Shown one piece after another: positions 6,410-61,774 of a stretch of DNA of 64,000 bases. Below the pieces are notes generated by a model. The model did no database searches, had not been told where the DNA came from, and worked only from the letters and a program-made list of their open reading frames with translations. Position 1 is the stretch's first letter, and every line of letters begins with the position of its first letter. This DNA comes from Dehalococcoidia bacterium (GTDB lineage Bacteria; Chloroflexota; Dehalococcoidia; UBA6926). Where the stretch lies: positions 494,197 to 558,196 of the forward strand of contig OZ252041.1 in assembly GCA_965247995.1 (NCBI GenBank), read 5' to 3'. The translations under genes were made by a program, and so were the position numbers.

Positions 6410-7621
6410 TCACCTCGGTAGACCGAGACCCCGCTGCGCAATGATGTTGGGCCCAAGCAGGATTCCGCCGCCGCCGCCGAATCCCAGTGCCAACGCGAGG
6501 TCCGCGTTCGTCCCGTACATCCCGTTGTTCGGTGCGCGGCTCTCACCGTTCAGACACGCTGCATACTGCTGGACAATGCTTCCGAGCGTCGGCCAGAAGT
6601 GGAACTTGGCGGTCACCTGATTGTGATACCCAGAGATCGCCCCCTCGGCCTGTGGCACGTCGCCCCGGGCTTCCATCCATGCGACACGGTAGGCAAGCAT
6701 CCGGTCGGCTTCGACCATCACCCGGAGGTCGGCCAACTTGTTTCGCACGATGGGGTCCGACAGCACCGGTTCACCGTTGAACGTGGTCTCGCGCATCACA
6801 TCCAAGAATCGGTCCAGCACACCGATGTGCCGCGCCGGCCCATCGACCCCAGTCCGCTCGAAGTTCAACGTAGTCATCGCCGCGTACCATCCACGGTTGA
6901 CCTCACCGATCAGGTTGGTCTTCGGTACGCGCACCTCATCCATGAAGATCTCGTTCCAACGACGCTTCCCTAGCATGTCGTACAGCGGACGGAGCGTCAC
7001 ACCGGGCGTGTACACACCATCGTCGTCCCGCAGCCGCATCGCCAGATACGTGATTCCCCGATGTTTCGGCGCGGCCGGATCGGTCCGGACGAGCACGTGG
7101 TACCAGTCTGCGAAGTGCGATGCGGAGCTCCATATCTTCTGGCCAGTGACCACATAGTCATCGCCGTCCTCGACGGCGCGCGTCTGCAGATTCGCCAAAT
7201 CGGTTCCCGCATTCGGCTCGCTGAAACCCTGCGCCCAGTGGATCTCGTTCCTTGCCATCCCGGAAAGGAAGTAGTCCTTCATCCAGTCAGACCCGTGGAC
7301 CATGATGGCGCCGGTGATGTTCCCGCCAGGCGACCCAGCAGGTGCATCCGCGTAGGCTAGTTCCTGTCGGTACACGAACTGTTTGCTCAGTGGAACGTCT
7401 TGCCCACCGTGTTCCTTGGGCCAGTGCATCGTCCACCAGCCCTTCTTAATGAGTTTCTGCGCGAACTCGTCCGCGAGGTCGCGCGCCTCCGCGTTGTCGA
7501 AGTCGAACGACCTCGTCGTCATGCTGTACGCGTCGAACCCCTTTGAGTCCCATTCTGCGGCCAGGAAGGCTCGCACCTCGTCACGGAACGCCTCATCCTC
7601 TGCGGTCAGCGTGAAATCCAT
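6410..7621 (-). CDS. Acyl-CoA dehydrogenase family protein (paralogue F, subtype II)
   Basis: 403 aa. Starts MDFTLTAEDEAFRDEVRAF; contains GFSEPNAGTDLA, GQKIWSSASHFADWYHVLVRTDP and TTLNFERTG; ends GGGGGILLGPNIIAQRGLGLPR. Homologous to the five tandem copies at 51-58.5 kb. Confidence 0.8.
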   Translation of the reverse strand: MDFTLTAEDEAFRDEVRAFLAAEWDSKGFDAYSMTTRSFDFDNAEARDLADEFAQKLIKKGWWTMHWPKEHGGQDVPLSKQFVYRQELAYADAPAGSPGGNITGAIMVHGSDWMKDYFLSGMARNEIHWAQGFSEPNAGTDLANLQTRAVEDGDDYVVTGQKIWSSASHFADWYHVLVRTDPAAPKHRGITYLAMRLRDDDGVYTPGVTLRPLYDMLGKRRWNEIFMDEVRVPKTNLIGEVNRGWYAAMTTLNFERTGVDGPARHIGVLDRFLDVMRETTFNGEPVLSDPIVRNKLADLRVMVEADRMLAYRVAWMEARGDVPQAEGAISGYHNQVTAKFHFWPTLGSIVQQYAACLNGESRAPNNGMYGTNADLALALGFGGGGGILLGPNIIAQRGLGLPR

Positions 7622-9955: not shown

Positions 9956-9980
9956 CGGAGGAACCTAACCGTCGTCCAGC

Positions 9981-20933: not shown

Positions 20934-20937
20934 CCGC

Positions 20938-21026
20938 GGAGAGGTGCTGGAGTGGCCGAACAGGCACGCCTGGAAAGCGTGTAGGGTCTTCACGGGCCCT
21001 CGCGGGTTCGAATCCCGCCCTCTCCG
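20938..21026 (+). tRNA. tRNA-Ser (anticodon GGA)
   Basis: GGAGAGGTGCTGGAGTGG...CACGC-CTGGAAA-GCGTG anticodon stem-loop, long variable arm, GCGGGTTCGAATCCCGC T-arm; sits 4 nt after the preceding tRNA-Ser. Confidence 0.8.
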
Positions 21027-21184
21027 CCGACCCAGCCCCAAGAATCCCGATCAACTCGCAATGCCTTGTGAGCACTGTCGGTCGAGTGAGTACCGGATAC
21101 CAGCAGTCCGACGGGGCCCCGGCACACGGCCGCCAAACACGTGGCGCAACGCGGAGGCTTGGCTGAGCGTCAGCGTCCTCCGAG

Positions 21185-33799: not shown

Positions 33800-33869
33800 C
33801 CGGACCGGGGCTCATTGACCCCCTAGACCGCGGAACCTATCGTTGCCCAATCCTGGGGGTGGGGCGAAC

Positions 33870-40914: not shown

Positions 40915-40920
40915 GCGCGG

Positions 40921-41661: not shown

Positions 41662-41865
41662 CGCGTAGTCCTCCGAGTTCGTTTGGCGAGTCCGTTTAGT
41701 TGTTCCCGGGTAAATCTGAAGAAATCTGTAGATTACTCAGATTCGCCGGTTTCGCATGCTACCACGGCCCCTCGGTTGACTCTGAGCCAAACCGCCATGT
41801 ACGCTCGTTTTTGGTTTGGGACTTACGTAACCCGTGGATCGTGGCATCCTCGCGAGAGGTGAATC

Positions 41866-42615: not shown

Positions 42616-42644
42616 CCGGACGCGACAACGTCCACGGGCCGACA

Positions 42645-42673
42645 AAGAAAAAGGCCGGGTCGCCCCGGCCTTT
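42645..42673. terminator. Bidirectional terminator between convergent genes
   Basis: AAAAAGGCCGGG-TCGC-CCCGGCCTTT hairpin with A-run upstream and T-run downstream. Confidence 0.65.
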
Positions 42674-42696
42674 GGCCTCGGAGTACACGAACTGAA

Positions 42697-42891
42697 CTAG
42701 GTCTTCTTCGGCAGGACCATCTCAATCGCGTTCTTCGACTCGTTCGCGTGGCAAAGGGCAGGGTCGCCCCCGCACTCACACTCCTCGCCGTTCTCGCACT
42801 GGCAATCAGCCAACAGTTTGCCGCACGCACAGGTCGCAGCTTCAATCTGCCCGGTAACGCCCTCGACCCTGCGCTCTTGCTCGATCGTCAT
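42697..42891 (-). CDS. Small Cys-rich protein (metallothionein-like candidate)
   Basis: 64 aa with 8 Cys + His clustered as CxC(x6)CxC(x4)CxC(x7)CH; no signal peptide; terminator-flanked. Confidence 0.4.
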   Translation of the reverse strand: MTIEQERRVEGVTGQIEAATCACGKLLADCQCENGEECECGGDPALCHANESKNAIEMVLPKKT

Positions 42892-42930
42892 GCTTACTCC
42901 TGTGCCCCGGCGGTACGAGTCTTGTACAGA

Positions 42931-45591: not shown

Positions 45592-45656
45592 CAGTTAGGA
45601 CCTCCGCCCAGGCATCGCTCGATCGTCATTACGAGAACTAGCGGGACCGGCAGCGG

Positions 45657-48185: not shown

Positions 48186-48361
48186 CGCACCACCTCCAGG
48201 AGCAACATGGCGGATCAATTGTCCGGGACCCGCGTGCCGCCCCAACCACAGCCGCGATTCGCCGAATTCGCCGCGACCAGTATAGTGACGGAAGGAAATG
48301 ATAGGCGTGGGCCGGGTCGGCGTCGGACCGGTTGCGCCAACGGATAATCCGGAGGAAACGT

Positions 48362-50641
48362 ATGGGTGGTGGACTATTGGGCCTCGGCCTCGCACGAGGG
48401 CTTGCTCTGGCCGTCGTGAGCCTCGCGATCGCGGTCGCCTGCACGTCCGAGCCAACCAGTTCCTCTTCCGACACGACGCCCGTCTCGACGGAACCTGCCC
48501 CCGCAGCGCCGGCGGCCCCGACCCCTGAACCATCCCCAATAACGTCGGATACCTCCGATTCCGCATCAGCGGCCGCGACACCAGAGACACCGACCGCCAC
48601 TCCTACATCCGCGCCGGAGCCCGCAGCCACCGCAACCGCAACCAGAGTCCCCGCTACGCCGACGCCCACCCCCTCGCGCACCCCCGCCGCGGAGCCGGTG
48701 GCCTCGTATGTCAACGGGCTATACGGATTCTCCGTGCAGTACCCCGACACCTGGTCCGTCAACGAGACCGATAGCCCATCCCCCGTTGCCATCTTCGACG
48801 CCGGCACGGAAGACCTCAGCGTCCAGGCATACGTCCGCTACTACCGTGCGCGCCTGACCGCGTCAGAAGCCGCTGAACAGGAAATCGCCCCACTCGCTGG
48901 CCTGCCGAACTTCCGGACGATCATCGAGGCGCCGGTCACCCTTGAAGACGGCACCGAGACCTACCAGATCCTCTACGGCTTCGGCACCGGACAGGAAGAA
49001 CGTCGCGGCGGCCTGACCTTCGTTACCGAGGACACGCGAGCTACCGTCCTCCACGCCGTCGGGCCACGCCGCACGTATGAAGACAACCTGAACGGTATCG
49101 ACGCGTTCCTGAACAGCATCAAGATCGAACCCCAGCGCCCATTCGGAGTCGCGCGCGGGGACGCGCTCGTCCTGTCGCTGGACGACGGCCCTATCACTCT
49201 CGATCCCGCCATAGCAGTGGAGAGCCAATCAGGCCAGTACATCGGCCAGGTGTTCGACGGCCTCGTCGCGTTGGATGGCGATCTCAATGTCGTCTCCGAC
49301 CTGGCCGCGTCGTGGGAGGTCTCCGACGACGGCCTCACTTACACCTTCATTATCGACCCCGAGGCCACGTTCCACGATGGGACCGCTGTACTCGCATCGG
49401 ACGTCGTGTACTCCTGGGAGCGGGCAGCGGATCCGGATCTTGCCTCGTCCATCGCACGCACATACCTAGGTGACATCGTCGGGTTCGAAGAACGGGCTAG
49501 CGGCGCCACTGAGTCGATCAGTGGGCTGCAGGTTGTCAACGATCAGACGTTGACCGTCACGATCGACTCACCAAAGAGCTACTTCCTTTCTAAGCTCACA
49601 CACACGGCTGCTTCGGTCGTTCAGCGTGCGAATGTCGAGTCCGGAACGGGCACTTGGTGGCTCCAACCTGTCGGGACCGGGCCGTTTGCGGTCGCGGAGT
49701 GGATCCCTGATGTCGCGATGCACCTGGAACGCCACGCGGACTACCATGGACTGCTTCCGGAGGTCGAGAATGTCGTCTTCCGATTCCACGCGGGCGTCCC
49801 CTTGCGGATGTTCGAGGACGGTGAGATCGACGCCACTCGACTCTCTCTTGCCGAGTTCAACATCCTCGGTGACGAGCAGAGTCCGCTGCTGGACAACATC
49901 ACGACCCAACCACAGCTCTCCGTGAACTATCTCGGTTTCAATGCCGCCGTTGCCCCGTTCGACGATGTGAACGTCCGAAGGGCGTTCTTGCTCGCACTCG
50001 ACCGTCAGTCCATCGTCGAAGAGACGCTCAATGGGATCGGCGTGCTCGCGCACGGGTTCTTACCGCCCGACCTCCCGGGCTACGACCCGGATATTGAGGA
50101 GATCGTCTTCTCGCCCGCGGCTGCACTCGCGGCGCTCGAGTCCTCAAAGTACGGCAGTGCGGATGGCCTGCCGGAGATCACAATTTCGACACCCAGTCTT
50201 GCGCCTCACGTAATGGAAATGATCGCCATGTGGCAAGAACACCTTGGCGTCTCTGTCGGCATCGACTTGGACCCGGACACTAGCTACTTCTACGACTTCG
50301 ACAACGACAGGCCAGGCCTCTTTGTGTCCGGGTGGATCGCCGACTACCCAGACCCGCACAACTTCTTGGATGTCCTGTTCCATTCGACCTCGGACAGCAA
50401 CTTCGGCCGGTTCTCCAGTGCCACGGTCGATGACTTGCTGGTCCAGGCGCGTACCGAGACAGACGCGGACGAACGCATACGCCTCTATCGCACCGCCGAG
50501 CGGATCCTCGTCGCAAATGGCGCGGCGATTCCGCTCTGGTTCGGGCAGGTCAAGGTCTTGACCGCACCCCAGGTCCAGGGTTTCGTGATAGACGCCCAGG
50601 GCAGGATTGACCTCGCCAAGGTCACGCTCACTGAGCCCTAG
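48362..50641 (+). CDS. Lipoprotein: Pro/Thr/Ala-rich linker + unknown domain + ABC substrate-binding domain (family 5)
   Basis: Start MGGGLLGLGLARGLALAVVSLAIAVAC (lipobox) behind a GGAGGA RBS. About 100-aa low-complexity PTA linker, then an SBP_bac_5-like region (VARGDALVLSLDDGPITLDPA...). Confidence 0.7.
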   Translation: MGGGLLGLGLARGLALAVVSLAIAVACTSEPTSSSSDTTPVSTEPAPAAPAAPTPEPSPITSDTSDSASAAATPETPTATPTSAPEPAATATATRVPATPTPTPSRTPAAEPVASYVNGLYGFSVQYPDTWSVNETDSPSPVAIFDAGTEDLSVQAYVRYYRARLTASEAAEQEIAPLAGLPNFRTIIEAPVTLEDGTETYQILYGFGTGQEERRGGLTFVTEDTRATVLHAVGPRRTYEDNLNGIDAFLNSIKIEPQRPFGVARGDALVLSLDDGPITLDPAIAVESQSGQYIGQVFDGLVALDGDLNVVSDLAASWEVSDDGLTYTFIIDPEATFHDGTAVLASDVVYSWERAADPDLASSIARTYLGDIVGFEERASGATESISGLQVVNDQTLTVTIDSPKSYFLSKLTHTAASVVQRANVESGTGTWWLQPVGTGPFAVAEWIPDVAMHLERHADYHGLLPEVENVVFRFHAGVPLRMFEDGEIDATRLSLAEFNILGDEQSPLLDNITTQPQLSVNYLGFNAAVAPFDDVNVRRAFLLALDRQSIVEETLNGIGVLAHGFLPPDLPGYDPDIEEIVFSPAAALAALESSKYGSADGLPEITISTPSLAPHVMEMIAMWQEHLGVSVGIDLDPDTSYFYDFDNDRPGLFVSGWIADYPDPHNFLDVLFHSTSDSNFGRFSSATVDDLLVQARTETDADERIRLYRTAERILVANGAAIPLWFGQVKVLTAPQVQGFVIDAQGRIDLAKVTLTEP

Positions 50642-50769
50642 CGCCCGCCAAGCATCCCCTCAGGCCATTAACGCGAGCGGCCCGGCCGATGCGGCGTTCG
50701 TTGACACCTCAATTGGCCGCAAACTAGAATGAGCCGCTTTTTGGGCTGGAATTTCAGGGGGTAGCATCT

Positions 50770-51009
50770 TTGGGTACTCGTGCCTTCATCCTCATCGAGA
50801 CCTCGGTCGGCAAGACACAAGACGTCGTCACAGCGCTTCGGGGCGTCTCCCAGATTAGGTCGGTCGACGCCGTCACCGGCCCGTACGACGTAATCACGGT
50901 TATCGAGGCGCCCGATCTCAACACGGTAGGGAACGTCGTCACCACGAGCATTCACACCATTAGCGGTGTCCTGCGCACCGTTACCTGCCTGGCCGTCAAC
51001 CTCAGCTAG
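50770..51009 (+). CDS. Stand-alone RAM-domain (Lrp/AsnC C-terminal ligand-binding domain) protein
   Basis: 79 aa; AFILIETSVGKTQDVVTALRGVSQIRSVDAVTGPYDVITVIEAPDLNTV has a RAM βαββαβ pattern; TTG start behind a GGGGG RBS; immediately upstream of the ACAD array. Confidence 0.55.
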   Translation: MGTRAFILIETSVGKTQDVVTALRGVSQIRSVDAVTGPYDVITVIEAPDLNTVGNVVTTSIHTISGVLRTVTCLAVNLS

Positions 51010-51076
51010 CGCTGCTCCCCGCCACGTACCCGGCTCACCCGGGCGGGCTGACGCCACTTCCCTCAAGGAGGGTCTC

Positions 51077-52264
51077 ATGGACTTCCAGTTTGCGCCCGAA
51101 GATGAAGCGTTCCGACAGGAGGTCCGTGACTTCGTCCGCTCCGAATGGGACCCAAAGGGCCACGACGTCGTCGGGGCCTCAATCGCCTCCTACGATCTCC
51201 ACACCCATGAGGCCATCGAGCTCGTCAAACAGTGGCAGAAGAAGTTGGCCGACAAGGGTTGGTGGACGCTCCACTGGCCTACCGAGTTCGGCGGGATGGC
51301 AGCCCCCATCAGCCGCCAACTCGTCTACCGCGAAGAGTTATCGTACTGGGGAGCCCCCGCGACCGGCGCAAGCGACCTCGTCAGCCCGGTGCTGATGTTC
51401 CACGGCAACGATTGGCACAAGCAGGAGTTACTCCCGCACTACGCCACCGCGGAGATTGAGTTCTGCCGCCTGTTGTCAGAGCCCGGCTCGGGTTCCGACC
51501 TCGCCTCCGTCACGACGAAGGCCGTCCGCGACGGCGATGACTTCGTCGTCTCCGGTCAGAAGATCTGGACCAGCATGGCGGAGATGGCGGACTACGGGCA
51601 GGCCATCGTCCGCACCGATCCCGAGGCTGCCAAGCACCGCGGACTGACCTATCTGATCATCGACATGAAATCCCCCGGCATCGTCCTCCGACCGCTGCAC
51701 GACATGCTCGGGCAACGCCGGTGGAGCGAAGTCTTCCTCGACGAGGTCCGCGTGCCCGTTCGCAACATGGTCGGTGAGTTGAACCGTGGCTGGTACGCGA
51801 CGATGACCCACCTCAGCTTCGAACGGTCGAACATCGGCGGACCGGCCCGGATGCTCCGGTTCCTCGAGGAGTTCACCGATTGGGCCCGGACCGCGAAGGT
51901 GAACGGCACCCCGCTGCTGGACGACGTCCGGCTCCGCCACAAGCTCGCGGACTACCGGTTGCAGATCGAGGTCGCCCGCATGATTTCCTACCGCGTCGCC
52001 TGGATGCAGACCAAGGGCGAAATCCCGGTCAAGGAGTCCTCGATGACGAAGAACTGGGGCGACGTCCTCCATCAGGGCATCTACCGTGGCCTCGCGTCCG
52101 TCCTTGCCGACGCCGGACAACTCCGGCCCGAAGACCCCAAAGCCCCTGCGAACCGCTTCCTCGGCGTCAACGCCTTCCTCAGCACCGGTCTCAGCATCGG
52201 CGGTGGCACACGCGAGATCCAGAAGAACATCATCGCGCAGCGCGCCCTCGGCCTGCCACGCTGA
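51077..52264 (+). CDS. Acyl-CoA dehydrogenase family protein (paralogue A, subtype I)
   Basis: MDFQFAPEDEAFRQEVRDF...; LSEPGSGSDLAS; MTHLSFERS; C-terminus GGGTREIQKNIIAQRALGLPR; ATG behind an AAGGAGGG RBS. Confidence 0.8.
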   Translation: MDFQFAPEDEAFRQEVRDFVRSEWDPKGHDVVGASIASYDLHTHEAIELVKQWQKKLADKGWWTLHWPTEFGGMAAPISRQLVYREELSYWGAPATGASDLVSPVLMFHGNDWHKQELLPHYATAEIEFCRLLSEPGSGSDLASVTTKAVRDGDDFVVSGQKIWTSMAEMADYGQAIVRTDPEAAKHRGLTYLIIDMKSPGIVLRPLHDMLGQRRWSEVFLDEVRVPVRNMVGELNRGWYATMTHLSFERSNIGGPARMLRFLEEFTDWARTAKVNGTPLLDDVRLRHKLADYRLQIEVARMISYRVAWMQTKGEIPVKESSMTKNWGDVLHQGIYRGLASVLADAGQLRPEDPKAPANRFLGVNAFLSTGLSIGGGTREIQKNIIAQRALGLPR

Positions 52265-52289
52265 CCTACCTAGGGGAGAACAACCGAGC

Positions 52290-53495
52290 ATGGACTTCAC
52301 ATTCGGATCAGAGGACGAGGCCTTCCGACAGGAGGTCCGCGAGTTCATCCAACGAGAGTGGGACCCCAAGGACTTCAACAACGACCTCGGGGTCTTCGGC
52401 TACGACTTCGACAGCGCCGAGTACCGCGACCACAGCCGTGAGTTCACCAGGAAGCTCATCGAGAAGGGTTGGTACACCATGCACTGGCCCGAGGACTGGG
52501 GCGGCCAGGGCGCGCCGCTCTCGAAGCAGGTCGCCTACTCGGAGGAGTTGGCCATGGCCAGCGCCCCAGCCGGCACCCCAGGTGGCAACATCACCGGCGC
52601 CATCATGTTCCACGGCAGCGACTGGCTAAAGCAGGAGTTCCTGCCCAAGATGGCCGACGCCGAGATCAACTGGGCACAGGGGTTCTCGGAGCCCAATGCC
52701 GGTACCGACCTCGCAAGCCTCTCCACCCGCGCTGTTGAGGACGGCGACGACTTCGTCGTCACCGGACAGAAGATCTGGTCATCCGGCTCCCACTTTGCCA
52801 ACTGGTACCACGTCCTCGTTCGCACCGACCCCACCGCGCCCAAGCACCGCGGCATCTCCTACCTCGTCATGCAGATGAAGAACGACGACGGAAACCAGAT
52901 GCCCGGGATCACGCTCCGCCCCTTGTATGACATGTTCGGCCGCCGGCGCTGGAATGAGGTCTTCATGGACGAAGTCCGCGTTCCCAAGCGCTACATGATC
53001 GGCGAGGTCAACCGCGGCTGGTACGCCGCTATGACCACGCTCAACTTCGAGCGCGCCAGCGGCACCGGCGCCCGCAACATCGCTGTCTTCGAGAGCTTTA
53101 TCAAACTCGCCAAGCGGCTCAAGTTCAATGGCACGTCCGTGCTCGAAGACCCGATTGTTCGGAACAAGCTCGCCGATGTCCGCGTCCGGCTCGAGACGGC
53201 CCGCATGCTTGCCCTCCGGTTGGTCTGGCTCCAGTCCACCGGGGAGGTCCCACAGGCCGAGAGCGCAATCTCGAATTACTTCAGCTCGACCTTGAATAAG
53301 TTCCACTTCTGGCCGACGCTCGGCGAGATCATGGGCCCCTACCGCGCGCTGCTGAAGGGAGAGAAACGCTCACCCGACAACGGCGTTTACGGCACGAACT
53401 ATGCCCTCAGCATGGTCACCGGCTACGCCGGCGGCGGCGGCATCCTCCTCTCGCCCAACCTCATCGCACAGCGGGGTCTCGGCCTCCCGAGATAG
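52290..53495 (+). CDS. Acyl-CoA dehydrogenase family protein (paralogue B, subtype II)
   Basis: MDFTFGSEDEAFRQEVREF...; GFSEPNAGTDLAS; TTLNFERAS; C-terminus GGGGILLSPNLIAQRGLGLPR. Starts 25 nt after paralogue A, so likely co-transcribed. Confidence 0.8.
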   Translation: MDFTFGSEDEAFRQEVREFIQREWDPKDFNNDLGVFGYDFDSAEYRDHSREFTRKLIEKGWYTMHWPEDWGGQGAPLSKQVAYSEELAMASAPAGTPGGNITGAIMFHGSDWLKQEFLPKMADAEINWAQGFSEPNAGTDLASLSTRAVEDGDDFVVTGQKIWSSGSHFANWYHVLVRTDPTAPKHRGISYLVMQMKNDDGNQMPGITLRPLYDMFGRRRWNEVFMDEVRVPKRYMIGEVNRGWYAAMTTLNFERASGTGARNIAVFESFIKLAKRLKFNGTSVLEDPIVRNKLADVRVRLETARMLALRLVWLQSTGEVPQAESAISNYFSSTLNKFHFWPTLGEIMGPYRALLKGEKRSPDNGVYGTNYALSMVTGYAGGGGILLSPNLIAQRGLGLPR

Positions 53496-53704
53496 GTCCC
53501 TCCGCCGAGTTCCCTCTACAGGGAGTCTATGCGCCGCCCGTAGCCACATGCGCACGATCGAATCGCCGAGCAGGCGCAGCCAGTCGTCCCGCCCCCTGCC
53601 CGAGTCCGTCTCCGGACACGTGCCTTGCTGCACGACCGCCACCCACAGGCGTACGATGCTCCCAGCCCAACGACCCACGCTAAACGACCACGGAGGTTCG
53701 TGAC

Positions 53705-54904
53705 ATGGATTTCCGACTCTCAACCGAAGACGAGGCCTTCCGACAAGAGATTCGTGACTTCGTCCAACGCGAGTGGAACAACCACGGCTACGACCTCGTC
53801 AGCACCATGAACACGTCCTATCACCTCGACGACGTGGACGCGCTCAGCCTCCAGCACGACTTCGAAAAGAAGCTCGTCGATAAAGGCTGGTGGACCATGC
53901 ACTGGCCCACCGAGTTCGGTGGCCAGGCCGCCTCCGTCGAGCGGCAACTCGTCTACCGCGAGGAAATGGCTTACCGGGGCGCTCCGTCTTCCATGGGCGG
54001 AGGCCTCGTCGCACCCCTCCTCTGGCTCCACGGGACCGAGCGGCAGCGCAACCAGTTCCTCCCACAGCTTGCGAACGCAGACCTCGAGTTCGCTCAAGGG
54101 TTCAGTGAACCAAACGCCGGCTCCGACCTCGCCAACCTCCAGACCCGCGCCGTCAAAGACGGCGATGATTTCGTCATCAACGGCCAGAAGATCTGGACCT
54201 CCACCGCCCACCACCCCCTCGCCCACTGGGGCCACATGCTCGTCCGCACCGACCCAGACGCCGTCAAGCACCGCGGCATCTCGTACCTGTTCATCGACAT
54301 GCACAGCCCCGGCATTTCGCTCCGCCCTTTGTATGACATGCTCGGACGCCGGCGCTGGAGCGAGTGGTTTCTGGAGGACGTGCGCGTCCCCGCAGAAAAC
54401 CTTATCGGCGAGCTGAACCGCGGTTGGTACGCGGCCATGACCACCCTCAGCTTCGAGCGCGGCTCCGTCGACATCCCTGCCAGCCTCCTCCGAGGCCTCG
54501 AAATCATCACGGACTACCTCCACAAGACCCGCGTCGACGGCAAACGACTCACCGACGACCCGCTGGTCAAGAACACCCTCGCCGACCTACGGATCGACAT
54601 GGAACTCGGCCGCATGCTCGCCTACCGCGTCGCTTGGCTCCAGGCCAAAGGACAAGTGCCGGACATGGAACCGTCCATGGCCCGTGTGTGGGCTGGCGAA
54701 GCCACCCAGAAGGTCTACCGCACCGGCGCCCGCCTCATGCGCGACTTCGGGACCATCGTCCCCGGAGGCCCCAGACGCTGGTCGCCCCTCGGCGGCTTCT
54801 TTGGCGCAAACCACTACCTTTCCACCGGCCGCACCTTCGGCGGCGGCGCGAAAGAGATCCAGCGCAATATCATCGCCCAACGCGGACTCGGCCTCCCCAG
54901 GTAA
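53705..54904 (+). CDS. Acyl-CoA dehydrogenase family protein (paralogue C, subtype I)
   Basis: MDFRLSTEDEAFRQEIRDF...; TTLSFERGS; C-terminus GGGAKEIQRNIIAQRGLGLPR. Confidence 0.8.
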   Translation: MDFRLSTEDEAFRQEIRDFVQREWNNHGYDLVSTMNTSYHLDDVDALSLQHDFEKKLVDKGWWTMHWPTEFGGQAASVERQLVYREEMAYRGAPSSMGGGLVAPLLWLHGTERQRNQFLPQLANADLEFAQGFSEPNAGSDLANLQTRAVKDGDDFVINGQKIWTSTAHHPLAHWGHMLVRTDPDAVKHRGISYLFIDMHSPGISLRPLYDMLGRRRWSEWFLEDVRVPAENLIGELNRGWYAAMTTLSFERGSVDIPASLLRGLEIITDYLHKTRVDGKRLTDDPLVKNTLADLRIDMELGRMLAYRVAWLQAKGQVPDMEPSMARVWAGEATQKVYRTGARLMRDFGTIVPGGPRRWSPLGGFFGANHYLSTGRTFGGGAKEIQRNIIAQRGLGLPR

Positions 54905-55026
54905 CCCACGCGGCCCGAAACGCGAATCCCGTTACTCCTCTGGCCGCTGCGTTAGGCGTACTGAGTCTGGCTACTACCTGCGGCGACGCCGCAGGTTGCC
55001 GGCATCGTCCTAGGCGCGAGTGACAA

Positions 55027-55425
55027 TCACTCCCTGGCGTCCAGGCGGTCGATATTCCCTGGCCAGTCCAAAATCCGCCGGTCAGCGGTCAGGAGCAGGT
55101 GGCCCTCAAGAGCGGTCGCCACGATCAAACGGTCCGCAGGGTCGCGGTGAAAGTCCGGTAGCGCGGCGGCGCGGATCGCGATTTCGCCGCTGATGGCAAT
55201 CTCGACGAGACCTTCGCGCAACAGCGTCTGCCGCCATCGACTCACCTCTTCATCCAAAGCGATTCGATTCCGGTCTTTGAGCAGGCTCACCTCCCAGAAA
55301 GATATGGCCGACGCCGCCAGCTCATTTGCTCCGAGCGCACGGTCAAACTCCTGCTGGGCCAGGGGGCCCATTGTCCGGTCCCCAGTCCTTTGCCAGACCA
55401 AGATATGGGTATCAACGATCATCAC
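55027..55425 (-). CDS. vapC: PIN-domain toxin VapC
   Basis: 132 aa: MMIVDTHILVW...D...E...D acidic PIN triad pattern; 4-nt overlap with the upstream antitoxin. Confidence 0.7.
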   Translation of the reverse strand: MMIVDTHILVWQRTGDRTMGPLAQQEFDRALGANELAASAISFWEVSLLKDRNRIALDEEVSRWRQTLLREGLVEIAISGEIAIRAAALPDFHRDPADRLIVATALEGHLLLTADRRILDWPGNIDRLDARE

Positions 55426-55703
55426 GGGTTCAGCACGCGGTCAGGATCTGAATCGGCTTCCCATTCCACGTTAACGGGCGAGATGATGTCGCCAAGGATT
55501 TCGAGCTTGCCCCGGTCCCGCCCGAACCAGCTCACCGGCCTCTCCCGATGGGGCACCAGCTTCGCCACCGGGCGGCCGTTCTTCGTGATCACGATCTCGT
55601 CGCCACTCTCCGCCACCTCGTCCATGAGCTGAAGGCATTTGGCCTTGAACTCAGAGGCCTTCATGGTCCGGGGCCCGATTGGCTTGTCGGTCTTTGCTTC
55701 CAT
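55422..55703 (-). CDS. vapB: Phd/YefM-type antitoxin (VapB)
   Basis: MEAKTDKPIGPRTMKASEFKAKCLQLMDEVAESGDEIVITKNGRPVAKLVP matches the Phd/YefM fold consensus. Start at the internal ATG (AAGGA RBS); alternative start 55664. Confidence 0.6.
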   Translation of the reverse strand: MEAKTDKPIGPRTMKASEFKAKCLQLMDEVAESGDEIVITKNGRPVAKLVPHRERPVSWFGRDRGKLEILGDIISPVNVEWEADSDPDRVLNP

Positions 55704-55880
55704 GGTTGCGTCCTTAGGTTTGGATACATGTATCGTACCATGGTCACGACCATAGTCATTCACGCGGACCCAATAGACCTGAGCATGTGATTCCCACAAC
55801 CCCAGCCCCGCCAACCCCGACCCAATCAGATAAACTGCCGACGCGCACAACCCGTTGCGATACGACAGGGGGATTGACCC

Positions 55881-57095
55881 ATGGATTTCAAACTCACGAC
55901 AGAAGAAGAGACCTTCCGGCAGGAGGTCCGCCAGTTCATCAGCGATCACTGGGACCCAAAGGGCTTCGACGCCCACACCCTCAACGTCCGCGCCTACGAC
56001 TTCGATAACCCGGACTCCCGCGCCCACGACGACGAGTTCGTCAAGAAGCTCGTAGAAAAAGGCTGGTACACGATGTCCTGGCCCAAGGAATGGGGCGGCA
56101 TGGACGCCCCGATCGGCATCCAGATGGTCTACGGCCAGGAGCTCTCCTACGCCGGCGCACCCGCGGGCTCACCAAGCTCGAACATCACCGGCGCACTCAT
56201 GTTCCACGCCTCGGACGAGATGAAGAACTGGTTCCTCCCGCGCATGGCCCGGAACGAGGTCGATTGGGCCCAGGGCTTCTCCGAGCCCAACGCCGGCACC
56301 GACCTCGCTAGCCTCCAGACCCGTGCCGTCGAGGACGGCGACGACTTCGTCGTCACCGGACAGAAGATCTGGTCCTCCGGCTCCCACTTCGCCAACTGGT
56401 ACCACGTCCTCGTCCGCACGGACCCGTCAGCGCCCAAGCACCGCGGCATTTCCTACCTCGCCATGCAGCTCAAGGACGAGAACGGCAATCAGACGCCCGG
56501 CGTCACGCTCAGGCCCCTCTACGACTTCTTCGGCCGACGGCGCTGGAATGAGGTCTTCATGGACGAGGTCCGCGTCCCCAAGAGCCGCATGATCGGCGAA
56601 CTCAACCGCGGCTGGTACGCAGCCATGACCACCCTCAACTTCGAGCGCACGGGTGGCGCTGCCGCCTCCGCAGGGAGCCTCGGCGTCTTGGACCGGTTCG
56701 TGGCCACCATGCGCCGCACGAAGTTCCAGGGCGAATCCCCCCTCAAGGACCCGCTCGTCCGCCACAAGCTGGCCGATCTCCGCATTACGCTCGAGACCGA
56801 CCGCATGCTTGCGTACCGCGTCGCTTGGATGCAGGCCAAAGGCGAGGTGCCCCAGGCCGAAGGCGCGATCTCCGGATACCGCACCCAGCTGACCGCCAAG
56901 TTCCACACCTGGCCAACGCTGGCCAAGATCGTTGGCGACTACAGCGTCCTGCTGAAGGGCGAGAAGCGTGCGCCCGGTAACGGCATCTACGGCACCAACA
57001 ACGCGCTCGCCATGTCCATCGGGTTCGGCGGTGGTGGCGGCATCCTCCTTGGCCCCAACATCATCGCCCAGCGCGGATTGGGCTTGCCCCGCTAG
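55881..57095 (+). CDS. Acyl-CoA dehydrogenase family protein (paralogue D, subtype II)
   Basis: MDFKLTTEEETFRQEVRQF...; TTLNFERTG; C-terminus GGGGGILLGPNIIAQRGLGLPR. Confidence 0.8.
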   Translation: MDFKLTTEEETFRQEVRQFISDHWDPKGFDAHTLNVRAYDFDNPDSRAHDDEFVKKLVEKGWYTMSWPKEWGGMDAPIGIQMVYGQELSYAGAPAGSPSSNITGALMFHASDEMKNWFLPRMARNEVDWAQGFSEPNAGTDLASLQTRAVEDGDDFVVTGQKIWSSGSHFANWYHVLVRTDPSAPKHRGISYLAMQLKDENGNQTPGVTLRPLYDFFGRRRWNEVFMDEVRVPKSRMIGELNRGWYAAMTTLNFERTGGAAASAGSLGVLDRFVATMRRTKFQGESPLKDPLVRHKLADLRITLETDRMLAYRVAWMQAKGEVPQAEGAISGYRTQLTAKFHTWPTLAKIVGDYSVLLKGEKRAPGNGIYGTNNALAMSIGFGGGGGILLGPNIIAQRGLGLPR

Positions 57096-57126
57096 CCAAA
57101 CACCGCGTTCCAGATAGTTAGACAAA

Positions 57127-57160
57127 CGCCTCGGGGGCAATCCCGGGGCGCTTTGTTTTT
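57127..57160 (+). terminator. Rho-independent terminator after ACAD paralogue D
   Basis: CGCCTCGGG-GGCAAT-CCCGGGGCG hairpin (one G·U) followed by CTTTGTTTTT. Confidence 0.55.
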
Positions 57161-57328
57161 CCCGACCCGCGCGGTCCATATCCGATGGATCGAACAAATG
57201 GGGGACGCTGCGTTTTTGGGCCCGATCCTCGGGTCTGCTTTACGCACTATTGGCCCGATGCTATCGTGCGGTGTTCTCGCCACCGATCTGTTCGGACCCG
57301 AGCAGTATCTCGGGCAAGGGGGTATCAC

Positions 57329-58540
57329 GTGGACCTTCGTTTATCAGCAGAGGACGAGGCCTTCCGGCAAGAGTTGCGCGCTTTCCTTCAGTCCGAATGG
57401 GACCCAAAGGACTTCGACGCGTACTCCATGAACGTCTGGTCGTACGACTTCGACAATCCCGCCGCCCGTGACCACGCCCAGGACTTCCAACGCAAGCTCA
57501 TCGACAAGGGTTGGTGGCTCATGTCCTGGCCCAAGGAGTTCGGCGGTGAGGACGCCCCCATCAGCCGCCAGCTCGTCTACTCGGAAGAGATGGCCTATCA
57601 CAACGCTCCAGCCAGCCAACCCCAGGGAAACGTCGCCGGCGCGATCATGATCCACGGCACCGACTGGGCGAAAGAAACGTTCCTCACGGGCATGGCCGAC
57701 AACACCATCAATTGGGCCCAAGGCTTCTCGGAGCCGAACGCTGGGACCGACCTCGCAAACCTCCAGACACGAGGGGTCGAGGATGGCGACGACTTCGTCG
57801 TTACCGGACAGAAGATCTGGTCCTCCGGATCGCACTTCGCCAATTGGTACCATGTCCTCGTCCGCACGGACCCGTCGGCGCCCAAGCACCGCGGCATTAC
57901 TTACTTGATGATGCAGTTGAAGGACGATCAGGGCGACCAGATGCCCGGCATCACCCTCCGCCCGCTCTACGACATGCTCGGCCGCCGGCGTTGGAACGAG
58001 GTCTTCATGGATGAAGTCCGCGTGCCGAAACGCCAGATCATCGGTGAGGTGAACCGCGGCTGGTACGCCGCGATGACCACCCTGAACTTCGAACGCACCG
58101 GCATCGAGGGGGCGACGCGGCTCATCGGCGTCCTCGACCGCTTCATCGCCGTCATGCGCCGGACCAAGTTCAATGGCGAAAGCCCGTTGAGTGATCCCGT
58201 CCTCAGAAACCGCCTCGCCGACGCGCGCATCACGCTCGAGTCGGACCGCATGCTCGCCTACCGGGTCGCCGCCATGCAGGCCCGCGGAGAGGTGCCGGAG
58301 AAGGAAGGCATGATGTCCGGCCTCCGCGCCCTCCTCACCGCGAAGAACACCTTCTGGCCCGCGCTCGGCCACGCCATCGGCCCATACGCCGCCCTCCTGA
58401 AGGGGGAAAAGCGCGCGCCCGCGAATGGGATCTACGGCACGAACTACGCGCTGAGCATGACGACCGGATTCGGTGGCGGCGGCGGGATCCTGCTCTCACC
58501 AAACCTGATCGCCCAGCGGGGCCTCGGTCTACCGCGTTAA
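57329..58540 (+). CDS. Acyl-CoA dehydrogenase family protein (paralogue E, subtype II)
   Basis: GTG start behind an AAGGGGG RBS gives (M)DLRLSAEDEAFRQELRAF, homologous to the other N-termini; the track ORF starts earlier, at 57185. TTLNFERTG; C-terminus GGGGGILLSPNLIAQRGLGLPR. Confidence 0.75.
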   Translation: MDLRLSAEDEAFRQELRAFLQSEWDPKDFDAYSMNVWSYDFDNPAARDHAQDFQRKLIDKGWWLMSWPKEFGGEDAPISRQLVYSEEMAYHNAPASQPQGNVAGAIMIHGTDWAKETFLTGMADNTINWAQGFSEPNAGTDLANLQTRGVEDGDDFVVTGQKIWSSGSHFANWYHVLVRTDPSAPKHRGITYLMMQLKDDQGDQMPGITLRPLYDMLGRRRWNEVFMDEVRVPKRQIIGEVNRGWYAAMTTLNFERTGIEGATRLIGVLDRFIAVMRRTKFNGESPLSDPVLRNRLADARITLESDRMLAYRVAAMQARGEVPEKEGMMSGLRALLTAKNTFWPALGHAIGPYAALLKGEKRAPANGIYGTNYALSMTTGFGGGGGILLSPNLIAQRGLGLPR

Positions 58541-58566
58541 CGACGCCCCGAAGGAACCGACAACAT

Positions 58567-58596
58567 AAGACCCGAGGCATTTTCGCCTCGGGTCTT
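58567..58596. terminator. Bidirectional terminator between ACAD E and the HAD gene
   Basis: AAGACCCGAGGC-ATTTTC-GCCTCGGGTCTT perfect hairpin. Confidence 0.7.
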
Positions 58597-58601
58597 AGTC
58601 T

Positions 58602-58937
58602 TTAGATGTCCCGGGAACCGAGGTTGTCCCTGAACGCGGTCCAGTAGTTCGGGTGCACGTACTCGAACCCCACTTCAGCCGATAGGTGGTCGTCACCGTC
58701 GTTGTCGCTGATGTAGACAGGATGCTGCCCCGGGTGGGCCGCCTGTGCTTCCAGCAGGTTCTTCTTCCGGTCCACGCTCAGATACTCAGGGAACGGCGGG
58801 GGGTTCGGGCGCAGCGGGGACGGCGACACGATCACCACCCGATGGCCGGATGCCTCGAGCGCGTGCAACTCCTCGACCGGAATCGGGCCAATCCCGGAAA
58901 CCAACGTCCCATCAACATCGAAGCACAGTAAAGCCAT
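58602..58937 (-). CDS. Small HAD-superfamily phosphatase-like protein
   Basis: 111 aa; motif I FDVDGTLV and motif IV ISDNDGDD. Confidence 0.5.
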   Translation of the reverse strand: MALLCFDVDGTLVSGIGPIPVEELHALEASGHRVVIVSPSPLRPNPPPFPEYLSVDRKKNLLEAQAAHPGQHPVYISDNDGDDHLSAEVGFEYVHPNYWTAFRDNLGSRDI

Positions 58938-59139
58938 AGGTCAGCATCCCCTCACCGGATAATGAGATGAGTCTATCGCACCCGCGTGGGGACCCCGGCG
59001 GCCCGGTGGCACTGCGGTGTGGGATCTTCCTTCTCGCTCCGCGCCTGCTACCTGCCGCTATACTAATTCGACAAACGACGAAGAATCCATCAGGTCAGGC
59101 CTGGCATCATCCGGCCACGGTTAAGGGGGCATCGAAGCG

Positions 59140-59979
59140 ATGGCGACGGCAACAGCGGCACCAGTCCGCACGTTCACTCCAGAGCAGGTACAGCGGTACA
59201 GCCGCCATATCATCATGCCGCAGGTCGGGAGCATCGGACAGCGCAAGCTGATGGACGCCAGTGCGCTCGTCGTCGGCGCCGGAGGACTCGGATCGCCGCT
59301 CGCGATGTACTTGGCCGCCGCAGGCGTCGGCAAGCTCGGCATCGTCGACTTCGATGTCGTTGACATCACCAACCTGCAGCGCCAACTCCTCCACCGGAAC
59401 CAGGACGTGGGCCGGCCCAAGGTGGATTCCGCGGAGGACACCGTTCACGCGATCAACCCGGACGTCGAGGTCGTCAAGATCCCTATCCACCTCAACTCTT
59501 CCAACGTGATGGACATCATCAAGGACTACGACATGGTCATCGACGGGACGGACAACTTCCCGACCCGGTACATGATCAACGACGCCGCTGTTCTGGCGAG
59601 CAAGCCCGTGGTCCACGGCAGCATCTTCATGTTCGAGGGTCAGGCCACCACCTTCCTGCCTGGTGAGGGTTGCTACCGCTGCTTGTACCCAGCGCCCCCT
59701 CCGCCCGGCATGGTCCCTTCGTGCTCCGAAGCCGGTGTGCTGGGAGTCCTGCCCGGGATCGTCGGCAGCACCATGGCCATCGAGGCCATCAAGCTCGTGC
59801 TCGGCATCGGCAAGCCGCTCGTGAACCGGCTGCTCATGTTCGACGCGCTCGATATGGACTTCCGGACGGTCAAGATCCGCCGTGACCCAGAGTGCCCGAT
59901 CTGCGGGGATAATCCGACCATCGACGAGCTGATCGACTACGAGGCGTTCTGCGGGGTTCCCGCAATCGAACCCAGCTAG
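59140..59979 (+). CDS. MoeB/ThiF-family E1-like adenylyltransferase (sulfur-carrier activating enzyme, no rhodanese domain)
   Basis: RYSRHIIMPQVGSIGQRKLMDASALVVGAGGLGSP...; zinc motif CYRC...CPIC; 279 aa. Confidence 0.8.
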   Translation: MATATAAPVRTFTPEQVQRYSRHIIMPQVGSIGQRKLMDASALVVGAGGLGSPLAMYLAAAGVGKLGIVDFDVVDITNLQRQLLHRNQDVGRPKVDSAEDTVHAINPDVEVVKIPIHLNSSNVMDIIKDYDMVIDGTDNFPTRYMINDAAVLASKPVVHGSIFMFEGQATTFLPGEGCYRCLYPAPPPPGMVPSCSEAGVLGVLPGIVGSTMAIEAIKLVLGIGKPLVNRLLMFDALDMDFRTVKIRRDPECPICGDNPTIDELIDYEAFCGVPAIEPS

Positions 59980-60048
59980 CCGCGAGTCACGCGCTCTACC
60001 CCCGGCTGCGTACACGGCCCTTCGCGAACCTCTGAGCGGCGAGGCGTT

Positions 60049-60987
60049 TTGCGCTTTCCCAGCATCCTCGACACGGTGGGGAACACCCCACTCGTCGAGT
60101 TGCGACGCTTCCAGCCGAACGAGAACATCCGCATCTTCGCCAAGCTGGAGGGTCAGAATCCGACCGGCAGCGTGAAGGACCGTATCGCCAAGCTCATGCT
60201 GGAGACCGCGGACGCTGACGGCATCCTCTCCCACGACAAAGTCATCCTCGAACCCTCGAGCGGCAACACCGGCGTATCCCTCGCCATGATCGCCCGCTAC
60301 ATGGGATACCGCGTCAAGATCGTGATGCCCGATAACGTAACGGCCGAGCGTCGCGCGCTCATTGAGTCCTTCGGGGCCGTGGTCGAATTCTCCGACGGGA
60401 CCAAGGGCACCAACGGCGCGATCGAAGTGGCCCAGCAGATGGTCGCCGCGGAACCCGACGAATACGTCATGCTCTATCAGTACGGCAACGAGGCGAATCC
60501 GAAGGCGCACTACGAGGGTACCGGCCAGGAGATCATCGACGACCTTCCGGAGGTCTCGGTGTTCATCGCGGGCCTCGGCACGGGCGGCACGCTCATGGGA
60601 GTCGGTCGGCGGCTGAAGGAACACCGTAAGGACATCCGGATCGTCGCGGTCGTCCCGCACCCAGAGGAACGGATTCAAGGTCTGCGCTCGCTGGAAGACG
60701 GCTTCATCCCCCCGATCTTGGACCCTTCTCTGCTCGATGGACAGTTCATCATCACAAGCCGCGAGTCGTTCGAGATGACGCGCGAGCTGCTCGACCGAGA
60801 GAGCATCTTCGCCGGCATCTCTTCCGGCGCGGTTCTCGCCTGTGCAGTCCGCCTCGCTGAGCGGATGGAAACAGGCAACATTGTCTGCCTCATGGCTGAT
60901 GGCGGCTGGAAGTACTTGTCCACCGGCGTGTGGACGCGGCCGCTTGAGGAACTCGAAGCGGAGATGGGCCGCAAGATCTGGTGGTAA
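60049..60987 (+). CDS. Cysteine synthase family PLP enzyme (CysM/CysK-like)
   Basis: PLP Lys motif NPTGSVKDRIA; SSGNTGVSLA; GLGTGGTL glycine loop; 312 aa; TTG start. Confidence 0.8.
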   Translation: MRFPSILDTVGNTPLVELRRFQPNENIRIFAKLEGQNPTGSVKDRIAKLMLETADADGILSHDKVILEPSSGNTGVSLAMIARYMGYRVKIVMPDNVTAERRALIESFGAVVEFSDGTKGTNGAIEVAQQMVAAEPDEYVMLYQYGNEANPKAHYEGTGQEIIDDLPEVSVFIAGLGTGGTLMGVGRRLKEHRKDIRIVAVVPHPEERIQGLRSLEDGFIPPILDPSLLDGQFIITSRESFEMTRELLDRESIFAGISSGAVLACAVRLAERMETGNIVCLMADGGWKYLSTGVWTRPLEELEAEMGRKIWW

Positions 60988-61093
60988 CCTAAGGTTGGTT
61001 GCGGCTCGTTGACCGCTCCGGTCGACTACGGACCCGTCCGGGCCGCCGCTCCCCAAACAACCGTCGACACTCTTCCGAATCAAGGACCGCCAC

Positions 61094-61774
61094 ATGACCA
61101 CCAACGAGACCCTAAAAATAGAAGGGCGTGCCCGCGAGGAGCACGGGAAACGTGTCCGCTACCTCCGCCGCGCGGGCATTACGCCGGCGAACCTCTACGG
61201 CCGCGGCATGGAGTCCATCTCGTTCCAGGTCGATACGCGTGAGCTGGAACGCATCGTCCATCAGGGGGCCCGGTCAGCACTCGTGGACCTGTCTATCGAT
61301 GGCCAACTCCATAACGCACTTCTTCGCATCCTACAACGGCACCCCGTCACCAGAGCGCCGCTCCACGCCGAGTTCTTCCGCGTTCAGATGGACCGGATGA
61401 TTCAGACACAGATCCCGTTGCATGCTGTCGGTGAGGCGCCCGCAGCCAGGTTGCCCGCCTCCCTGGTGAGCCAGGTCATGCACGAGATCACGGTCGAGTG
61501 CCTCCCCGCCAACATCCCGCACGCAATAGAGGTCGACCTGTCACCGCTGGTCGAGATCGGTGACACGATCATGGTCCGTGACCTCGTCGCTCCGCTCAAC
61601 GCGGTCATCCTCGCCGAACCTGATCAAGTTGTGGTCAGAGCTGGCCAAGCCCGCGTCGCTGCAGAAGCGGCGGCCCTCGATGCAGCCGACGCCGCTGCCG
61701 CCGAAGGCGCAGAGGAAGAGGCCGAGGCCGCACCAACGGATGGTGGTGCCGAGGACGGGGGTGCGAGGGACTAA
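61094..61774 (+). CDS. rplY: 50S ribosomal protein L25 / general stress protein Ctc
   Basis: 226 aa; conserved L25 N-terminal β-barrel region plus an acidic Ala/Glu-rich C-terminal tail. Confidence 0.75.
   Translation: MTTNETLKIEGRAREEHGKRVRYLRRAGITPANLYGRGMESISFQVDTRELERIVHQGARSALVDLSIDGQLHNALLRILQRHPVTRAPLHAEFFRVQMDRMIQTQIPLHAVGEAPAARLPASLVSQVMHEITVECLPANIPHAIEVDLSPLVEIGDTIMVRDLVAPLNAVILAEPDQVVVRAGQARVAAEAAALDAADAAAAEGAEEEAEAAPTDGGAEDGGARD

Follow-up and report, generated by a model that had tools for sequence, protein, structure and literature searches.

When diverged acyl-CoA dehydrogenase (ACAD) genes lie side by side, are they the two subunits of one enzyme, alternative versions of the same subunit, or genes for enzymes complete in themselves? 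The question is raised by a 64-kb stretch of DNA from a Dehalococcoidia bacterium (contig OZ252041.1, positions 494,197 to 558,196; hereafter the window, in which positions are counted from the first letter). The window contains six intact ACAD genes, of which five, A to E, lie on the plus strand (51077–58540) and the sixth, F, at 6410–7621. An earlier reading made from the DNA letters only (the sequence-only reading) had described A to E as an array headed by a gene for a stand-alone RAM protein of 79 residues, with F as a further copy adjoining an NmrA-like gene, and the coordinates, the domains and the neighbour of F are all borne out. On balance we lean towards seeing A to F as a battery of alternative alpha subunits, headed by a conserved RAM gene, which would use a beta subunit encoded elsewhere.

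Our account draws on 78 related loci (denoted below by L and a number), which were scanned with a profile built from the six paralogues. These loci, like the other homologues retrieved, all come from metagenome-assembled genomes of Dehalococcoidia/Chloroflexota, obtained from marine water, sponges and corals and also from Baikal and groundwater.

Six alpha-type proteins of two kinds

In a Pfam scan all six proteins match PF02771, PF02770 and PF00441 above the gathering score, which places them in the ACAD superfamily. Alignment divides them into two types. Type I comprises A (51077..52264, plus strand; 395 residues, ending …SIGGGTREIQKNIIAQRALGLPR) and C (53705..54904, plus strand; 399 residues). 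Type II comprises B (52290..53495, plus strand; 401 residues, ending …YAGGGGILLSPNLIAQRGLGLPR), D (55881..57095, plus strand; 404 residues), E (57329..58540, plus strand; 403 residues) and the solitary F (6410..7621, minus strand; 403 residues). The start codon of E is a GTG, and its orthologue in L082 has also been called at 403 residues. An ATG at 57185 was considered as the start of E and rejected: it would add 48 residues without homology, and both orthologues and gene calls favour the GTG. The N-terminus MDFxLxxEDEAFRQE and the C-terminus IIAQRGLGLPR are common to all six proteins. The types part company towards the C-terminal end, which reads GGG(T/A)xEIQxNIIAQR in type I and GGGGGILLxPNxIAQR in type II, the latter type also having a six-residue insertion in the middle domain. 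The six-sequence alignment thus upholds the shared termini and the two-way split that had been claimed from the sequence.

Identities are 55% between A and C, 47-51% between the types and 67-71% within type II. Values of 47-71% rule out recent, near-identical duplicates, and the copies are therefore old paralogues among which the subtype distinction is real. Twelve positions set type II apart from type I, with clusters at residues 98-105, 140, 253 and 387-390. They include P98, N101, G104 and A105 at the start of helix E (the Pro-loop), T140 in the flavin-site motif, N253 beside the catalytic Glu, and G387 and L390 in the J-K loop/helix K region. In a neighbour-joining tree, drawn without support values, type II forms a single clade nested among marine type I genes, and the subclade that adjoins beta genes is basal within it. 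Type II is one derived clade, confined to the marine lineage of the window. The array had been called an unusual lineage-specific expansion, and for type II lineage specificity holds; arrays of two to six alpha-type ACAD genes, however, are common across Dehalococcoidia.

The closest relatives of known structure are the same for both types. Their best PDB sequence matches are 4x28_A (ChsE4) and 6wy8_B (Tcur3483), with e-values from 1e-45 to 1e-60; C, for instance, matches 4x28_A best, at 1.2e-60. Beta chains are not among the matches listed for the window ACADs. An AlphaFold2 (AF2) model of D has the ACAD fold with a mean pLDDT of 89.4, and a Foldseek search with it ranks 4x28_A/B and 6wy8_B first (TM 0.79-0.85). 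ChsE4 and Tcur3483 are thus the best matches in both sequence and fold, and the kinship with actinobacterial alpha2beta2 ACADs proposed in the sequence-only reading is sustained. Among NCBIfam models the best for all six is pimC_large (TIGR03204), but scores of 170-216 bits fall far under its equivalog cut-off of 623.85 bits and orthology with PimC was rejected; type II, indeed, reaches the cut-off of no NCBIfam equivalog. By these matches the six copies are assigned to the alpha (catalytic)-type subunits of the branch that holds FadE26/ChsE4, Tcur3483 and the large subunit PimC.

Medium-chain ACAD (MCAD) has its catalytic base, Glu376, in the J-K loop; the bases of isovaleryl-CoA dehydrogenase (IVD), Glu254, and long-chain ACAD (LCAD), Glu291, lie in helix G and are topologically equivalent to it (PMC11153573). 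It had been suggested that every window copy has lost the MCAD-type Glu and uses a Glu of helix G in its place. Alignments were made with a C-terminal fragment of MCAD, validated against 1ege_A (residues 355-396), and with a fragment of IVD that is 100% identical to residues 242-322 of 1ivh_A, and they agree with both parts of the suggestion. The type I motif G(T/A)xEIQ aligns with MCAD G377-Q382, so that the position of Glu376 is occupied by Gly. The type II J-K loop does not align to the MCAD motif on its own, and it contains no acidic residue. In all six copies, on the other hand, the Glu of (S/N)FER corresponds to IVD Glu254, the stretch from RGWY to FER being free of gaps, and the same residue pairs with Glu247 of ChsE4 in the HMMER alignment to 4x28_A. 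Across a 61-sequence alignment this Glu (E255 in the numbering of D) is invariant.

Other elements of the active site are also retained. As judged by motif, SEPxxG(S/T)D and the W and S/T of GQKIW(S/T)S are kept in all six copies, and an AP motif equivalent to ChsE4 P89 and LCAD P132 is invariant in them. In LCAD, ACAD11 and ChsE4 this Pro-loop proline unwinds helix E and widens the pocket for bulky substrates (PMC11153573). Each copy would be expected to perform ordinary ACAD chemistry, abstracting the alpha-proton and transferring hydride to flavin adenine dinucleotide (FAD). The base would be the Glu of (S/N)FER, with which helix G begins and which has its counterpart in IVD, LCAD and ChsE4, and the all-Gly J-K loop would supply only backbone NH.

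Might type II nevertheless have ceased to be an ACAD, and be instead a flavin-free pseudo-enzyme or scaffold, or an enzyme with oxidase, desulfinase or monooxygenase-like chemistry? Its J-K loop and the start of its helix K are unlike those of any characterised ACAD and do not by themselves align to the MCAD motif; model confidence at the loop is low, and the missing NCBIfam assignment could be read in the same sense. Conservation, however, speaks against this. Of the full type II sequences open to scoring, which represent at least five subclades, all 42 have TLNFER, and the GGGG motif is kept as well. Across these 42 sequences the Glu, the neighbouring Arg, the flavin-site motif (SEPNAGTD in type II) and the Trp and Ser of GQKIWSS are all strongly conserved, and in sequence and fold type II is closest to bona fide dehydrogenase alpha subunits. 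Tcur3483 provides a further argument. This FAD-containing alpha subunit reads GGGVNEVLR, and so it too is without the Thr and Gln of GTxEIQ; these residues are evidently dispensable, and their loss in type II is therefore no argument for loss of the flavin. We regard a departure from dehydrogenase chemistry as very improbable, and type II reads as an alpha variant of shifted specificity, not as a loss of function.

The search for a partner subunit

In alpha2beta2 ACADs the alpha subunit holds the isoalloxazine and the Glu, and the beta subunit holds the ADP-ribose (PMC11153573). The sequence-only reading had likened A and B to such a pair. In its full form this explanation makes types I and II the two subunits of a heteromeric ACAD (A+B, C+D), with type II non-catalytic and beta-like. 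It has some attractions. Only 25 nt separate A from B, the alternation of type I and type II (A-B, C-D) is conserved in L002-L010, L082 and L083, and type II is without the Thr, Glu and Gln of the flavin-side motif GTxEIQ. Nevertheless, the proposal finds no support: both members of the supposed pair are alpha-type. Type II keeps TLNFER and SEPNAGTD, finds its best sequence and fold matches in alpha chains and has no QxxGxxGF; genuine beta genes, described below, show the opposite motif pattern, and type II as a beta subunit was rejected.

Gene numbers and gene order also argue against such pairs. There are four type II genes to two of type I, and none of the neighbours of E, F and L079 is of type I. 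In L001 only 42 nt, and no B, lie between A and C, and in L008 and L010 A and B are set apart by 1.8-3.3 kb of unrelated genes. In two independent contigs, L081 and L084, it is a type II gene that lies directly before a genuine beta gene. Lastly, A is not the sister of C in the tree, nor B the sister of D, so that no two-gene unit has been duplicated. We therefore consider it improbable that A+B and C+D are heteromeric enzymes.

True beta-type genes are to be found in the related loci, where the last ACAD gene of a run often scores lower than the others and encodes a protein of about 375 residues. Such proteins (e.g. L022:9588-10757 and L081:4908-6038) match Tcur3481 (E 2.5e-41) and ChsE5 (E 6e-32). 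In these two and in the corresponding genes of L084, L086 and L088, LEP…EL replaces SEPxxG(S/T)D, a Gln occupies the position of the helix-G Glu and a Phe that of the MCAD Glu. The beta-type genes keep a QxxGxxGFxxE segment, while all six window ACADs are without QxxGxxGF. The core pattern QxxGxxG(F/Y/W)xx(E/D/Q) gave a clean division between alpha and beta; a strict pattern for ACAD signature 2 in the PROSITE style gave no match, beta genes included.

With these definitions a recurring Dehalococcoidia layout becomes visible: a RAM gene is followed by one to six alpha genes and then by one beta gene, which is always last. In 24 loci between one and six alpha genes lead up to a single, terminal beta gene. 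A clade of loci typified by L002 (about 84% identical to the window, with equivalents in L003-L010; L002 12592-14808, L022 5779-6963) has an array longer than that of the window. Here the order is A, B, a thiamine-diphosphate enzyme (562 residues), a c-type cytochrome, C, D and an SBP_bac_5 protein, continuing with DUF1761, E and a LivJ-type binding protein and closing with two further type I genes and one beta gene, a total of seven alpha genes and one beta gene. The beta gene at the end of the extended array is seen in L022 and L024.

Exact-sequence look-ups show that A, B, C, D, F, the RAM gene, ThiF and NDK share a single contig of 1,958,694 bp with a beta-type gene, P0316. The same 1.96-Mb contig has three further alpha-type genes. 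It also has, outside the window, P0051, a type II ACAD fragment of 254 residues which is 81% identical to D and has out-of-frame residues at its end; this is probably a decaying extra type II copy. We propose that each of A to F would pair with a beta-type ACAD encoded outside the window, for which P0316 on the same contig is the candidate. The outcome would be a family of alpha2beta2 enzymes with differing acyl pockets.

Must a beta subunit be invoked at all? Each paralogue could be a self-sufficient, homo-oligomeric ACAD in the manner of IVD and LCAD; the array would then consist of independent enzymes, each for a different acyl-CoA, and the distant beta gene would be irrelevant to them. That would be in keeping with the catalytic Glu and flavin-site motif of all six copies, with the lack of a beta gene in the window, and with solitary copies such as F, beside an M17 peptidase gene, and L079, between ruvC and ruvA. 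It would also accommodate the many Dehalococcoidia loci that have a single alpha-type gene and no beta gene within 10 kb. However, QxxGxxGF, missing from all six, is kept by canonical homotetrameric ACADs as well as by beta subunits. The nearest solved relatives, moreover, are alpha chains of heterotetramers whose activity depends on hetero-assembly (PMC8399759), runs of alpha genes end in a beta gene in 24 loci, and this genome does contain a beta gene. Self-sufficiency thus strikes us as rather doubtful, though still to be taken seriously.

Several points weigh against a battery of alpha subunits served by a beta subunit from elsewhere. Neither the profile nor the motif scan finds a beta-type ACAD in the 64-kb window or beside F, and several type II genes stand by themselves (F; also L079/L080, flanked by ruvC and ruvA). 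That one beta might be shared by many alphas is suggested by gene counts, the alpha/beta criteria come from a handful of sequences and general ACAD knowledge and not from contact maps, and the tree, as said, has no support values. Type II would have to bind FAD without the Thr, Glu and Gln of GTxEIQ, and the AF2 model of D is at its weakest precisely in the loop of the catalytic Glu (251-260; pLDDT 64) and in the GGGGG loop (381-390; pLDDT 63). The promoter and terminator matches given below are well placed but putative, not being enriched over shuffles. Finally, within the window the array has no linked gene for a hydratase, thiolase or CoA ligase, so that the class of substrate, which may be bulky or branched acyl-CoAs, is a guess.

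The RAM gene and the surroundings of the array

The gene that heads the array (50770..51009, plus strand) lies 67 nt upstream of A. It has a GGGGG ribosome-binding site upstream of its TTG start, and A has AAGGAGG before its ATG. The encoded protein is an Lrp/AsnC ligand-binding domain standing alone: PF01037 matches residues 7-75 of 79 (E 4.4e-12) and there is no helix-turn-helix domain. Gene callers in two other assemblies also arrive at 79 residues. Its best PDB matches are the stand-alone RAM proteins 2djw_A, 2zbc_A and 2e1a_A (also 2cvi), and all its named homologues are from Chloroflexi.

The role of array head attributed to this gene gains weight from its conservation, which extends far beyond the window's lineage. 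In 25 related loci tblastn places a RAM gene, 52-90% identical, 80-350 nt upstream of the first alpha gene and on the same strand, and a RAM gene adjoins ACAD genes in 27 loci. In the distant loci the identity of the RAM protein is 52-72% while the neighbouring ACAD is only 41-47% identical to A. A reverse test, starting from three RAM homologues picked regardless of context, found a downstream ACAD on the same strand in three cases out of three. The layouts were RAM-alpha-[PIN insertion]-alpha-beta, RAM directly before beta, and RAM-aminotransferase-hydrolase-alpha. In L088/L089 (L088 6001-7568) the RAM gene directly precedes a beta-type ACAD with no alpha gene, and in L085 (6001-11774) it is followed by a class-III aminotransferase, a PKD/alpha-beta-hydrolase protein and then an alpha ACAD; the link is therefore to the ACAD system generally and not to one subunit type. 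The RAM–ACAD linkage is real, and older than the lineage of the window.

The ligands of stand-alone RAM proteins are Ile, Val, Leu, Met or Phe, and such proteins can combine with full-length Lrp into hetero-octamers (PMC2995911). In DM1 and STS042 an amino-acid-type ligand is known to bind where dimers meet, at the dimer-dimer interface, and to alter the oligomeric state, and the physiological role of these proteins is unclear (PMC2995911). By analogy, the 79-residue protein would probably be a sensor of a small, amino-acid-type ligand that acts on expression. The window also encodes a 249-residue protein (41866-42615, plus strand), conserved in L083, in which a long N-terminal part without a Pfam match precedes a C-terminal RAM domain (residues 175-242). 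It is a possible full-length partner of the stand-alone protein.

A sigma-70-like promoter match (TTGACA-18-TAGAAT, 11/12; 50701..50730, plus strand) lies 40 nt upstream of the RAM start codon. It is the sole match in 50500-59200, a count equal to the shuffle expectation (1.0). Downstream, 32 nt after the D stop, there is a terminator-like hairpin (57127..57150, plus strand) whose 10-bp stem contains 8 GC pairs and is followed by CTTTGTTTTT. RAM, A and B, possibly with C, would probably form one transcription unit, D and E being transcribed separately.

The tandem array described in the sequence-only reading is not contiguous: its gene order holds, but a minus-strand gene pair lies between C and D. 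This consists of a VapC PIN-domain toxin gene (55027..55425, minus strand; PF01850, E 5e-11) and a gene for a Phd/YefM-type antitoxin of about 80 residues (55422..55664, minus strand; PF02604). The antitoxin gene, whose start codon could be located, overlaps vapC by 4 nt in the layout of a type II VapBC system. VapC does not occur at the C–D junction in L082 and L011. A third comparison is provided by L083, a 49.9-kb contig from another sample. It is 99.3% identical to 40906-54906 of the window, the match ending 2 nt past the C stop, and beyond that point the place of VapBC is taken by YgjP and a type I restriction-modification system. The VapBC pair is an insertion that splits the array, and is not part of the ACAD system.

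More generally, small defence or mobile genes land in the spacers of the ACAD genes, and these sites vary from strain to strain. In relatives the A-B, B-C or C-D spacers hold HNH endonucleases, a HicB antitoxin, PaREP1, a GmrSD_C/Excalibur fragment or a PIN gene. The variable spacers lie at 54905-55880 of the window and at L083 14136-20240, L082 7717-8741, L002 16158-17099, L008 11188-13040, L020 1681-3548 and L086 7629-8820.

Directly upstream of the RAM gene (42931-50641) come three SBP_bac_5-family proteins (886, 769 and part of 977 residues) and a BNR-repeat protein. The order SBP-RAM-A is kept in L001, L082 and L083, with an alpha/beta-hydrolase instead in the L002 clade. At the other ACAD locus of the window, a gene for an M17 leucyl aminopeptidase (7631-9154, minus strand) ends 9 nt before the start of F. 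This adjacency is kept in L021 (2875-5616), and the aminopeptidase gene is probably co-transcribed with F; we take the arrangement as a hint, no more, of a link to the breakdown of peptides or branched-chain amino acids. Taken with the upstream SBP_bac_5 genes, the LivJ-type protein of relatives and the ligand preference of RAM proteins, it hints weakly at a peptide-derived or branched-chain substrate.

Other features hint, again weakly, at a bulky or alicyclic substrate: the kinship with steroid ACADs, the Pro-loop and a set of igr-like genes in L084. In that locus (1-3801, 8683-11128), which belongs to a close relative, the beta-type ACAD is 91% identical to P0316, and just before it lies a type II alpha gene ('GHGFAGGGGLWLAPN'). 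At 6-10 kb from the beta gene are a MaoC/FAS1_DH dehydratase, a Thiolase_C_1 protein, a zf-ChsH2/OB_ChsH2_C (DUF35) protein and three open reading frames for enoyl-CoA hydratases. These are the same enzyme families as in the mycobacterial igr side-chain operon. In the window, the sole CoA-handling gene near the array is 15 kb away (33843-36275, plus strand). It encodes an 810-residue protein in which two complete family-III CoA-transferase (CaiB/BaiF-type) domains are fused in tandem, and its best NCBIfam matches are succinyl-CoA:mesaconate and succinate-glutarate CoA-transferases, all of them under cut-off.

The window as a whole has a G+C content of 62.7%, and its coding frames show the usual high third-position G+C. 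Its remaining genes include those for RelA/SpoT, riboflavin genes, threonyl-tRNA synthetase (ThrRS), isoleucyl-tRNA synthetase (IleRS), L25, TsaB, TsaE and MFS transporters, besides the three SBP_bac_5 proteins and the BNR protein already mentioned. Among the RNA genes, that for 23S rRNA (2207-5212, plus strand) is complete but isolated: in the window no 16S gene precedes it and no 5S gene comes after it, so that the rRNA operon is unlinked. A tRNA-Met gene (5310-5384, plus strand) follows it, and two tRNA-Ser genes (anticodons CGA and GGA) lie head to tail, 2 nt apart, at 20847-21028 on the plus strand. A minus-strand open reading frame at 59107-61104 was dismissed, as it shadows the genes for ThiF and PALP.

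Comparison with known systems

Two-subunit ACADs are known mainly from Actinobacteria and Proteobacteria, where they serve in the degradation of steroids and pimelate and each beta gene has a single alpha gene to go with it. In the literature searched we found no paper on an ACAD expansion in SAR202/Dehalococcoidia and none on a link between RAM and ACAD genes. Against that literature the type II alpha variant, the arrays of many alphas and one beta, and the RAM linkage look new.

A broader proposal can be put forward only tentatively. The genes may constitute a combinatorial ACAD system, in which one beta would serve many alphas, including type II with its remodelled flavin-side loop and substrate Pro-loop, to oxidise many bulky or branched acyl-CoAs, with RAM as a ligand-sensing partner. 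A single run may hold as many as six alphas, and a 2-Mb genome no fewer than nine or ten; RAM may regulate the system or be bound to the enzyme. If true, this would be a compact route by which marine Chloroflexi of small genome could handle acyl-CoAs from refractory organic matter, sterol-like lipids or peptides. The wider interest lies in finding, in an abundant and largely uncultured marine class, many diverged catalytic subunits, few betas, a lineage-specific alpha variant and a small sensor gene ahead of them. Should the shared-beta model hold, it would offer a testable handle on acyl-CoA substrates, a question of long standing where SAR202-like Chloroflexi and refractory carbon are concerned. 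It would also supply a natural series of alpha subunits for the evolution of ACAD pockets and of the flavin-side loop. Should it fail, what remains is an ordinary, though large, family of paralogues.

The protein at the head of the array resembles Pyrococcus horikoshii DM1 (2E1A/2CVI), the Sulfolobus tokodaii protein 2ZBC and the Thermus thermophilus protein 2DJW in its size, its single PF01037 domain and its want of a DNA-binding domain. Unlike the RAM protein of the window, no known stand-alone RAM protein has been reported as a conserved neighbour of ACAD genes.

Among the dehydrogenases, IVD and LCAD share with the window copies the position of the catalytic base and the Gly at the position of MCAD Glu376, and the Pro-loop of the window copies is of the LCAD type. 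They are, however, homotetramers with the canonical C-terminal FAD/ADP-binding segment, whereas the window copies are without QxxGxxGF, and as matches they are much weaker (E 1e-22 to 1e-27, against 1e-45 to 1e-60 for ChsE4). The pimeloyl-CoA dehydrogenase of PimC (large) and PimD (small) is likewise a two-subunit ACAD, although the window copies score far under its cut-off.

Closer still are the two-subunit steroid ACADs. Tcur3481-Tcur3483 of Thermomonospora curvata (6WY8/6WY9) provides the top match of type II. Tcur3483, however, keeps the Glu of N-E-V and has its beta gene adjacent; type II is without that Glu and, compared with Tcur3483, has one extra residue and a Pro before NIIAQR. ChsE4-ChsE5 (FadE26-FadE27) of Mycobacterium tuberculosis (4X28) differs from the window system in several respects. 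Identities are only about 28-40%, the window has six alpha-type genes instead of one and no adjoining beta gene, and type II reads GGGGGILLxPN where ChsE4 has GGGTNEVQ. In place of a steroid cluster, moreover, the window genes are set among housekeeping and peptide-uptake genes. Yet ChsE4 is the best or near-best match for both subtypes, and the window copies have in common with it the helix-G Glu (E247 in ChsE4), the GGG J-K loop, the LGLPR C-terminus and the AP Pro-loop.

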